A stretch of 13,872 nt of DNA from a virus (taxonomy: Duplodnaviria; Heunggongvirae; Uroviricota; Caudoviricetes). The stretch lies in IMG/VR virus record IMGVR_UViG_2874915312_000001; one strand, written 5' to 3'. Numbering within the stretch: the first letter of the stretch is position 1; every line of letters begins with the position of its first letter. The notes below the pieces were generated by a model, which saw only the letters and a list, made by a program, of their open reading frames with translations, searched no databases and had not been told where the DNA came from. Of the stretch, positions 7,315-8,706 are shown piece by piece. The position numbers were made by a program, and so were the translations under genes.

Positions 7315-8706
7315 TCAAAAGAAACGCTCCATCTTACTGCTGTCAGTTCGTTTATTACTGTATCTGCGCGGATTGCCGGGCTTCATGGGAGTGGAAAGCA
7401 CCCGTGCACTTTCCTGGTCCACAGGCAGAAAATGTCCGTTATAAAAACGCCGGTAAATCGTTCCCAGAGAACCGTTACGTTGTTTCGTGATATTGATTTC
7501 TGCGATGCCCCTGGCCTGCGTATCCGGGTTGTGCACTTCATCCCTGTAAAGCATCAGAATGGTGTCTGCATCCGCCTCTATTTCTCCGGAATTTTTCAGG
7601 TCTGAGTTCATGGGACGTTTATTGGGTCTGGACTCCACACCGCGGGAGAGCTGGCTCAGCGCAATCAACGGAAAACCACCGGATTTTGCCAGGCCTTTAA
7701 GCCCCTTTGAGATTTCACCCACGGCAAGGTCATGACGCCCCGTGATTCGGGTTTTTATCAGCCCGAGATAATCAACCACCACCAGCGCCGTTTCCGGATA
7801 TTTAATCAGGTGGTGTTTCGTTGTTGCGCATATCTCATCAATGGCCAGGTTCGCCTGGTCCACCATCCAGATATTGCGCCCGGTCATCCGCCCCACCCCT
7901 TGTGAGAAACGCGTCCAGTCTTCATCTTCAAAGTGAGCCACAGATTTCAGGCGTGATACTGGCATCCCTCCAGCCGCAGACACCATACGTTCACCAATCT
8001 GGATGTTCGCCATCTCCATGGTGAACAGAAGCACACCATGCCCCTGCTCAGTCACCTTGTCGATGATGTCCAGCGCAAGTTCGGTTTTCCCCATCGAAGG
8101 ACGGGCGGCAATGAATACCAGGTCTCCGGGCTCCATACCGCCTGTTTTTGCGTCCAGTTCATCAATACCGGTCATCAACGTCCTGGATTTCTCCAGCCCC
8201 GGATTCCGGCATTCAACACGCTCAACCACTTCCGGAAGCACATCATCAATATGTACCGGCTGAATGACGCCCTTTCCTGTCGACAGTGTGACCATCATGT
8301 TCTACGCATCCTTCAGGGCATCTTCAGCTGCTTCACAGGTATGCGCATCACGTAATTTCTGCAGCGCCTCATTCAGTGTTTTTTCTGCATCGCGCAGTGC
8401 GGCATTGCGCCGCAACGCTGCAACATAGTGCTCCAGTGAAGACTTCACCCAGGTTTTACGCCCGGTATCAGTAATCACCGGGGCAAGTTCCGGCATCTCA
8501 TTACACAACAGCACGGGGTCAATCACTCCTGAAACACGGGCCTGTCTGCAGATGCCTGTATAGATATCCTGATACGCTCGTACAGAAAAAATGTCCGCTG
8601 GCAGTGTGGCCAGAAGATCCATCACTTCAGGATCTGCTCCGCGCAGAAAGAACGCGCCGATGACAGCGCCTTCAAGGTCATCGTTACGCCATACTGGAGT
8701 TGTCAT
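7315..8706 (-). pseudogene. DnaB-family replicative helicase interrupted by an in-frame TAG at 8302-8304 (N-domain 8305-8706, RecA-like domain 7315-8298)
   Basis: ORF 8302..8706 is a DnaB N-terminal domain (LEGAVIGAFFL...ADIFSVRAYQDIY...). ORF 7315..8298 is the C-terminal ATPase domain (FIAARPSMGKTELALD Walker A, VVVDYLGLI, SQLSRGVESR). Both are in the same frame (8706-8298=408), separated only by TAG plus one codon. Confidence 0.7.

Follow-up and report, generated by a model that had tools for sequence, protein, structure and literature searches.

Does an amber codon in the middle of a phage helicase gene mark a recent inactivating mutation, a gene split into two separately made polypeptides, or a stop that is read through in a suppressor host? 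The question is raised by a gene for a DnaB-type replicative helicase on the minus strand of IMG/VR virus record IMGVR_UViG_2874915312_000001, a stretch of 13,872 nucleotides (nt; referred to below as the window), for which a first-pass annotation had put forward all three answers. All 13,872 bases of the window show a 100% match to NCBI record CP026803.1, the chromosome of Shigella flexneri strain 89-141, serotype Y (listed in a table of PMC9455713). The element carrying the helicase gene is a lambdoid prophage, similar to phage phiP27 and the Stx phages, that adjoins mlrA in the S. flexneri chromosome. We conclude, with a probability of roughly 0.88, that the amber codon is a C>T nonsense mutation that has made an ordinary helicase pseudogene in a defunct S. 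flexneri prophage.

Origin of the amber codon and decay of the helicase gene

The gene is read in a single frame from 8706 to 7315 (Table 1). The 134 sense codons are followed by TAG, AAC (8301..8299), ATG (8298..8296), ATG (8295..8293) and 325 further codons, and the frame closes at TGA (7317..7315). Reading this minus-strand frame confirms the original description of an in-frame TAG at 8302-8304 that is separated by one codon from ATG ATG. The open reading frame (ORF) of 134 amino acids (aa) upstream of the stop matches Pfam family PF00772 (DnaB N-terminal) over residues 9–88 (E=9e-6, 26.1 bits against a cut-off of 23), and the 327-aa ORF downstream matches PF03796 (DnaB_C) over residues 41–286 (E=5e-71, 239 bits); both helicase domains indeed share one frame. 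The C-terminal ORF contains the Walker A motif AARPSMGKT, which aligns with the same motif of E. coli DnaB.

We placed the stop on the protein by sequence alignment to the E. coli DnaB structures in the PDB (E=1e-60). The N-terminal ORF aligns with residues 34–161 of E. coli DnaB, codon 135 falls opposite Glu162 and Met137 opposite Arg164. We take codon 135 to lie in the last helix of the DnaB N-terminal helical hairpin, ahead of the hinge and linker. The stop had been assigned to the domain boundary, which is approximately right; it falls about 10 residues short of the hinge and linker. The two DnaB domains are not found on one unbroken polypeptide in the window, with TAG standing at codon 135.

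The helicase gene shares 88–94% identity with its single-gene counterparts in phage phiP27, Stx1/Stx2-converting phages and PhiR49_2, and prophage genes up to 99.5% identical occur in 349 complete E. coli genomes. Each E. coli record listed or inspected has one gene of 1392 nt here, annotated as 'replicative DNA helicase'. The helicases of phiP27 (P27p19, NP_543071.1), the Stx1/Stx2 phages and the E. coli prophages (e.g., WP_000211324.1) represent the same gene, with 88–99.5% nucleotide identity. The phiP27/Stx-phage relatives also share its neighbours (O-like initiator, DnaC/IstB-like loader, helicase, small ORF, ninH and Q). They encode one protein of 463 aa (466 aa in Stx1) with Gln135, whereas the window has TAG at this codon together with six private missense changes.

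Codon 135 is CAG or CAA (Gln) in phiP27, the Stx1 phage and PhiR49_2 as well as in nine of nine close E. coli and Shigella relatives. Since every intact relative examined has a Gln codon at this position, the amber codon represents a C>T transition at 8304. The AAC ATG ATG that follows the Gln codon is invariant in phiP27, the Stx1 phage and PhiR49_2, and the intact proteins read DAQNMM; Met-Met is thus ancestral internal sequence. Seven independent genomes (L004, L031, L033, L034, L036, L039 and L040) carry an intact allele that is base-for-base the same, which makes the ancestral state unambiguous at every site. This closest intact allele is seven bases apart from the window, and none of the seven differences is synonymous. 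The first-pass annotation had proposed to look in orthologous helicases for a sense codon or, alternatively, for two separate genes: all intact orthologs examined carry Gln (CAG/CAA), and the orthologs have one gene.

The stop itself is real. In exact-protein look-ups, both products (134 aa and 327 aa) or the identical DNA recurred in at least 20 independent assemblies or SRA runs. The carriers comprise a finished chromosome, two older drafts, many surveillance assemblies and Logan assemblies of independent SRA/ENA runs. A 61-mer with the TAG was found in none of 5426 complete E. coli genomes, the best match having exactly one mismatch, and an exact 29-mer scan for the amber allele over one genome per species gave no match. 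The amber allele is thus fixed in one nearly clonal clade. The 327-aa C-terminal ORF is called as a separate product in several assemblies; several NCBI assemblies with the same allele call no protein at the helicase locus and may annotate a pseudogene there.

Intact orthologs of the helicase are under strong purifying selection, with ratios of nonsynonymous to synonymous polymorphism (pN/pS) of 0.05–0.12. Compared with the intact allele, the window lineage has seven nonsynonymous changes (the six missense changes listed in Table 1 and Q135*) and no synonymous change, a pattern with a probability of 1.3e-4 if the intact-ortholog ratio applied and of 0.15 under neutrality. At all six missense sites, the other state is common to nine of nine close relatives. 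Later changes within the amber clade are R54K, Q221Q (synonymous) and R399W in one sub-lineage, A285T in two strains and R202C in one strain. Strain L020 has the amber codon and still has the ancestral Tyr392, indicating that Y392H arose after the amber mutation. The post-amber changes are five nonsynonymous to one synonymous (P=0.0075 under constraint and 0.56 under neutrality). Purifying selection was thus not detected on the helicase of the window lineage, either overall (7:0) or after the amber mutation (5:1).

Some of these replacements strike residues that are conserved as far as E. coli DnaB, namely R202C, I382T, Y392H and R399W. Arg202 lies in AARPSMGKT, and R202C adjoins Walker A; Ile382 pairs with Leu414, Tyr392 with Tyr424 and Arg399 with Lys431 of E. 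coli DnaB. Judged from this pattern of substitution, neither half of the helicase behaves as a gene that is still needed.

The prophage that the helicase would replicate is itself severely damaged. At its left end, an insertion sequence (IS) element of the IS3 family has removed the cI/cro/early-promoter region of the relatives. The deletion in the Q antiterminator gene shifts the frame and leaves a 53-aa stub, compared with 126–127 aa in relatives. An IS66-family element stands directly after the holin gene (5499-5714), and together with an IS3/IS911 copy it takes the place of the lysis and structural genes; past the holin gene, no lysis, terminase or structural genes are left within the window. 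Since the immunity and promoter region is cut by an IS element, Q is frameshifted and the late region is replaced by IS elements, the prophage can most likely no longer be induced and represents a non-inducible remnant.

A recent inactivating mutation, one of the three answers originally offered, is thus supported by Gln in the intact orthologs, by seven nonsynonymous and no synonymous changes, by continuing replacements and by the wrecked state of the prophage. The helicase of the window would be a pseudogene of the DnaB-type phage helicase family and not a working member of it, and we infer that no functional helicase is made. In the proposed sequence of events, a lambdoid prophage acquired one C>T transition in its helicase gene, by which the CAG codon for Gln135 became an amber TAG. 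The helicase is decaying, the same lineage having fixed six replacements and no synonymous change and sub-lineages adding more. Translation, if the region is transcribed at all, would stop at the amber codon and give a 134-aa N-terminal fragment. A little of the 327-aa C-terminal fragment might be made by termination–reinitiation at the ancestral ATG, and a trace of full-length protein by natural read-through; neither the restart product nor the read-through product would be maintained by selection.

The event is of an already known kind, another pseudogene within prophage and Shigella genome decay, and matters little alone. The nonsense pseudogenes of cryptic and defective prophages and of decaying Shigella genomes likewise show one premature stop, lost late genes and unconstrained drift. 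Compared with prophage pseudogenes generally, the sole oddity of the window helicase is a density of replacements above that of its flanks (see below). Several assemblies list the 134-aa and 327-aa ORFs as two proteins; these should instead be annotated jointly, as one pseudogene.

Clustering of substitutions and a possible selected inactivation

Several observations weigh against a simple decay of the helicase gene. The density of substitutions in the helicase is about 5–9 times that of the flanking 6.6 kb of the remnant, which is not predicted by simple neutral decay of a wholly dead prophage. In addition, the ATG 3 nt past the amber codon makes some restart product mechanistically plausible. 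N-terminally truncated DnaB homologues of Helicobacter pylori and phage SPP1 keep helicase activity (PMC1888833), as does an N-terminally truncated mycobacteriophage helicase (PMC4523182).

Positions 5464-13507 contain 11 window-lineage changes; the helicase makes up 17% of this length and has seven of them (P=8e-4). One sub-lineage has three changes in about 6.2 kb, every one of them in the helicase (P=0.012). Fisher's combined P for the clustering is 1e-4; it should be noted that these tests are post hoc, with about 20 events behind them, and that the clustering is a lead and not a result. Of the 13 changes in the helicase, 12 are protein-altering.

A diverged paralogous helicase as the source of the clustered changes, by gene conversion, is ruled out: the window and the intact allele show no synonymous differences, and the derived states are absent from phiP27, PhiR49_2 and the close relatives. 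An older segment flanked by recently recombined DNA is likewise ruled out, with a synonymous divergence (dS) of 0. One possible explanation for the clustering is that the flanks are still constrained, since they contain the four-tRNA cluster, a toxin–antitoxin-like pair and the Rha/Ash regulators. Another is that protein-altering changes in the helicase could have been favoured, by analogy to the replicative killing described for lambda.

According to the latter explanation, expression of the helicase and its loader from the trapped, non-excisable prophage harmed the host, and successive mutations that knock down the module, including the amber mutation, were favoured. We regard such a selected inactivation as unlikely. 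It would account for the clustering and for the large share of protein-altering changes, and the lack of synonymous differences means that the helicase segment is not simply older and that conversion is excluded. The loader holds one more replacement. There is also a precedent, since survivors of replicative killing by trapped lambda fragments carry mutations in O or P (PMC3640518). Nevertheless, one null mutation should suffice, and later ones would then be neutral. Present-day expression is doubtful with the early promoter region gone, and the nonsynonymous fraction is not significantly higher than the 76% expected under neutrality (P=0.14).

A more specific version, that the helicase and to a lesser extent the loader have repeatedly been altered faster than neutral because the product (including a restarted C-terminal fragment) is harmful to S. 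flexneri, seems to us rather improbable. If it were true, the trapped replication module of the prophage would have been silenced adaptively and step by step, with the amber mutation as one of these steps; this would be a natural counterpart of the escape mutants from replicative killing in the laboratory. The clustering, if real, would then be field evidence of active selection against trapped prophage replication genes.

Possible reinitiation and read-through

The amber codon could also have split the gene into two functional parts, with ribosomes stopping at TAG and restarting at Met137 or Met138, so that the collar and the linker–ATPase part are made as two working polypeptides. The position of the ATG, 3 nt past TAG, is compatible with such a split, as are a weak AAGGA 10 nt ahead of the internal ATG and the retention of the linker by the C-terminal fragment. 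Restart polypeptides after amber mutations are known in lacI and T4 rIIB, where an in-frame start likewise lies a few nucleotides past the premature stop. Compared with these cases, restart in the window helicase is a possibility of the sequence, without a strong Shine–Dalgarno (SD) match or a sign of selection on the product. No directly usable study came up in a literature search on restart after amber codons in bacteria.

As for a ribosome-binding site upstream of 8298, which the first-pass annotation had suggested to look for, we found only the AAGGA, which is weak and ancestral; a dedicated site for a second cistron was not detected. The AAGGA is conserved in intact orthologs as coding sequence, and neither it nor Met-Met shows adaptation since the split. 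The duplex formed by AAGGA has a free energy (dG) of −5.5 kcal/mol, compared with −6.9 to −12.7 kcal/mol at the native starts of the replication module. Its pairing is thus weaker than at every native start, and it is unremarkable among arbitrary positions in the helicase gene, 29% of which score as well.

The truncated helicases mentioned above provide the closest parallels to the 327-aa ORF, which consists of the linker and the RecA-like domain and corresponds closely to E. coli DelN156, H. pylori DelN2, SPP1 G40P deltaN and Wildcat gp80 deltaN. In favour of a working C-terminal part, truncated H. pylori DnaB and SPP1 G40P (PMC1888833) and Wildcat gp80 (PMC4523182) are active helicases. DelN156, the corresponding truncation of the E. 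coli protein, is an active ATPase without helicase activity (PMC1888833). Moreover, these constructs were engineered from intact genes, whereas the 327-aa ORF adds Q169P, T321I, I382T and Y392H and is situated in a dead prophage.

Further evidence against two working polypeptides comes from the substitutions after the amber mutation: both halves gain replacements at a neutral ratio, including the conserved-site changes R202C, I382T, Y392H and R399W. A two-gene arrangement that recurs in diverged lineages was not found; the relatives are single-gene, and other short N-terminal fragments are independent breaks elsewhere. A search with the 134-aa protein for stand-alone N-terminal-domain genes returned only partial genes at contig ends and independent truncations. 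Finally, the prophage that the split helicase would replicate is no longer inducible. A functional split is thus very unlikely. Of the reinitiation originally proposed, the mechanistic part stands, with an ATG 3 nt past the stop, and the functional part does not, given the ancestral Met-Met and AAGGA, the weak SD pairing and the lack of constraint on both halves. The C-terminal fragment may be made; nothing indicates that it is used.

Read-through of the amber codon, by a host suppressor or by natural near-cognate decoding, would give a full-length helicase with Gln restored. The ancestral residue is Gln, supE-type suppressors put Gln at UAG, and the low-level natural read-through of UAG in E. 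coli also inserts Gln. A 3' A favours suppression, and the stop stands in the context TAG-A. The stop is, however, limited to one nearly clonal clade, with a Gln codon in every ortholog outside it, so that conservation of the stop among diverged orthologs was not found. As shown by the six additional missense changes and by the later replacements, the full-length frame is unconstrained. Read-through in a suppressor host finds no support within the window: a prophage-borne suppressor tRNA is ruled out, since the four tRNAs of the window (Gly-TCC, Thr-TGT, Arg-TCT and CAT) include no CUA anticodon. A read-through-stimulating hairpin downstream of the stop is likewise ruled out (minimum free energy −25.1 kcal/mol against a shuffle mean of −28.95 kcal/mol, z=+1.18). 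We therefore consider read-through highly improbable.

A sequencing or assembly error with a sense codon as the true base has virtually no chance of being correct, since nothing was found in its favour and the recurrence of the identical allele in a finished chromosome, older drafts and independent Logan assemblies already refutes it.

Other features of the prophage remnant

Table 1. Features of the helicase gene and of the surrounding prophage remnant (window coordinates)
Feature	Position	Strand	Remarks
DnaB-type replicative helicase gene, now most likely a pseudogene	7315..8706	minus	463 codons in intact relatives
N-terminal ORF, 134 aa	8305..8706	minus	DnaB N-terminal globular domain and most of helical hairpin
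AAGGA (codons Leu-Lys-Asp)	8309..8313	minus	sole SD-like match ahead of internal ATG, 10 nt away
Amber TAG, codon 135	8304..8302	minus	plus strand reads cta; from CAG (Gln), C>T at 8304
ATG ATG (Met137-Met138)	8293..8298	minus	ancestral internal codons, no newly evolved start
C-terminal ORF, 327 aa, from Met137	7315..8298	minus	end of hairpin helix, linker, RecA-like ATPase domain
Lineage-specific missense I31L, V39I, Q169P	8616, 8592, 8201	minus	
Lineage-specific missense T321I, I382T, Y392H	7745, 7562, 7533	minus	
DnaC/IstB-like helicase loader, 292 aa, intact	8703..9581	minus	one lineage-specific replacement, L247Q (8842)
O-like replication initiator, 302 aa	9592..10500	minus	protein identical to E. 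coli relatives
Q antiterminator deletion junction	6614..6624	minus	124 bp lost between 11-bp direct repeats GATGGTTATAT
IS66-family element	2708..5464	plus	tnpA 2790-3464, tnpB 3461-3808, transposase 3828-5429
IS3/IS911 copy	796-2047		beyond IS66-family element, then chromosomal mlrA (1-534)
IS3-family orfA	13570..13872	plus	left end; truncates Rha-like gene (13097-13477)

Two strains of the amber clade carry additional lesions in the remnant. In L019, the O-like initiator gene has an extra nonsense mutation (window-equivalent 9860), and in L013 a 1-bp deletion causes a frameshift in the rha/ash gene (window-equivalent 11453), indicating that decay of the remnant is ongoing. IS copies are stacked at 796-2047, 2042-2702, 2708-5464 and 13503-13872, and the IS3/IS911-like ones are partly duplicated at both ends. 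Through these repeated IS3 copies, the whole remnant could undergo further deletion or be inverted.

The closest E. coli relative, a prophage of E. coli O121 (L004), is itself defective (10402-11570 and 14788-15392 of its locus), with IS911 after the holin gene and a truncated terminase gene. Its helicase is nonetheless the consensus intact allele, unlike the S. flexneri copy.

The four tRNA genes of the remnant are encoded on the minus strand (6007-6317), the one with anticodon CAT being annotated as tRNA-Ile in RefSeq relatives. Despite the dead prophage, the cluster is 100% identical to that of E. coli relatives, and this kept cluster may be a reason for the retention of the remnant.

A 524-aa ORF on the minus strand (11574-13148) is antisense to a plus-strand gene pair (12255-12882) that encodes a Gp49/RelE-like toxin and a helix-turn-helix (XRE/RstR-like) protein. 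Family matches of this ORF (Ash and Rha domains) are confined to its last ~200 residues, and the version chosen by gene callers has 271 aa; the long extension at the N-terminus of the 524-aa form probably represents an antisense frame that is open by chance.

The mlrA gene is called as two ORFs (177 aa and 52 aa) in the source genome (window 1-534; 17765-18416 in L008), which suggests that it is also disrupted, with the break at or just beyond the left edge of the window.

Homologous helicases in other E. coli and enterobacterial prophages (P0002, P0003, P0006, P0010 and P0011) are cut by junctions or frameshifts at different positions. Since the same helicase family is broken elsewhere by unrelated lesions, disruption of these genes is common and the site of the amber codon is not special.
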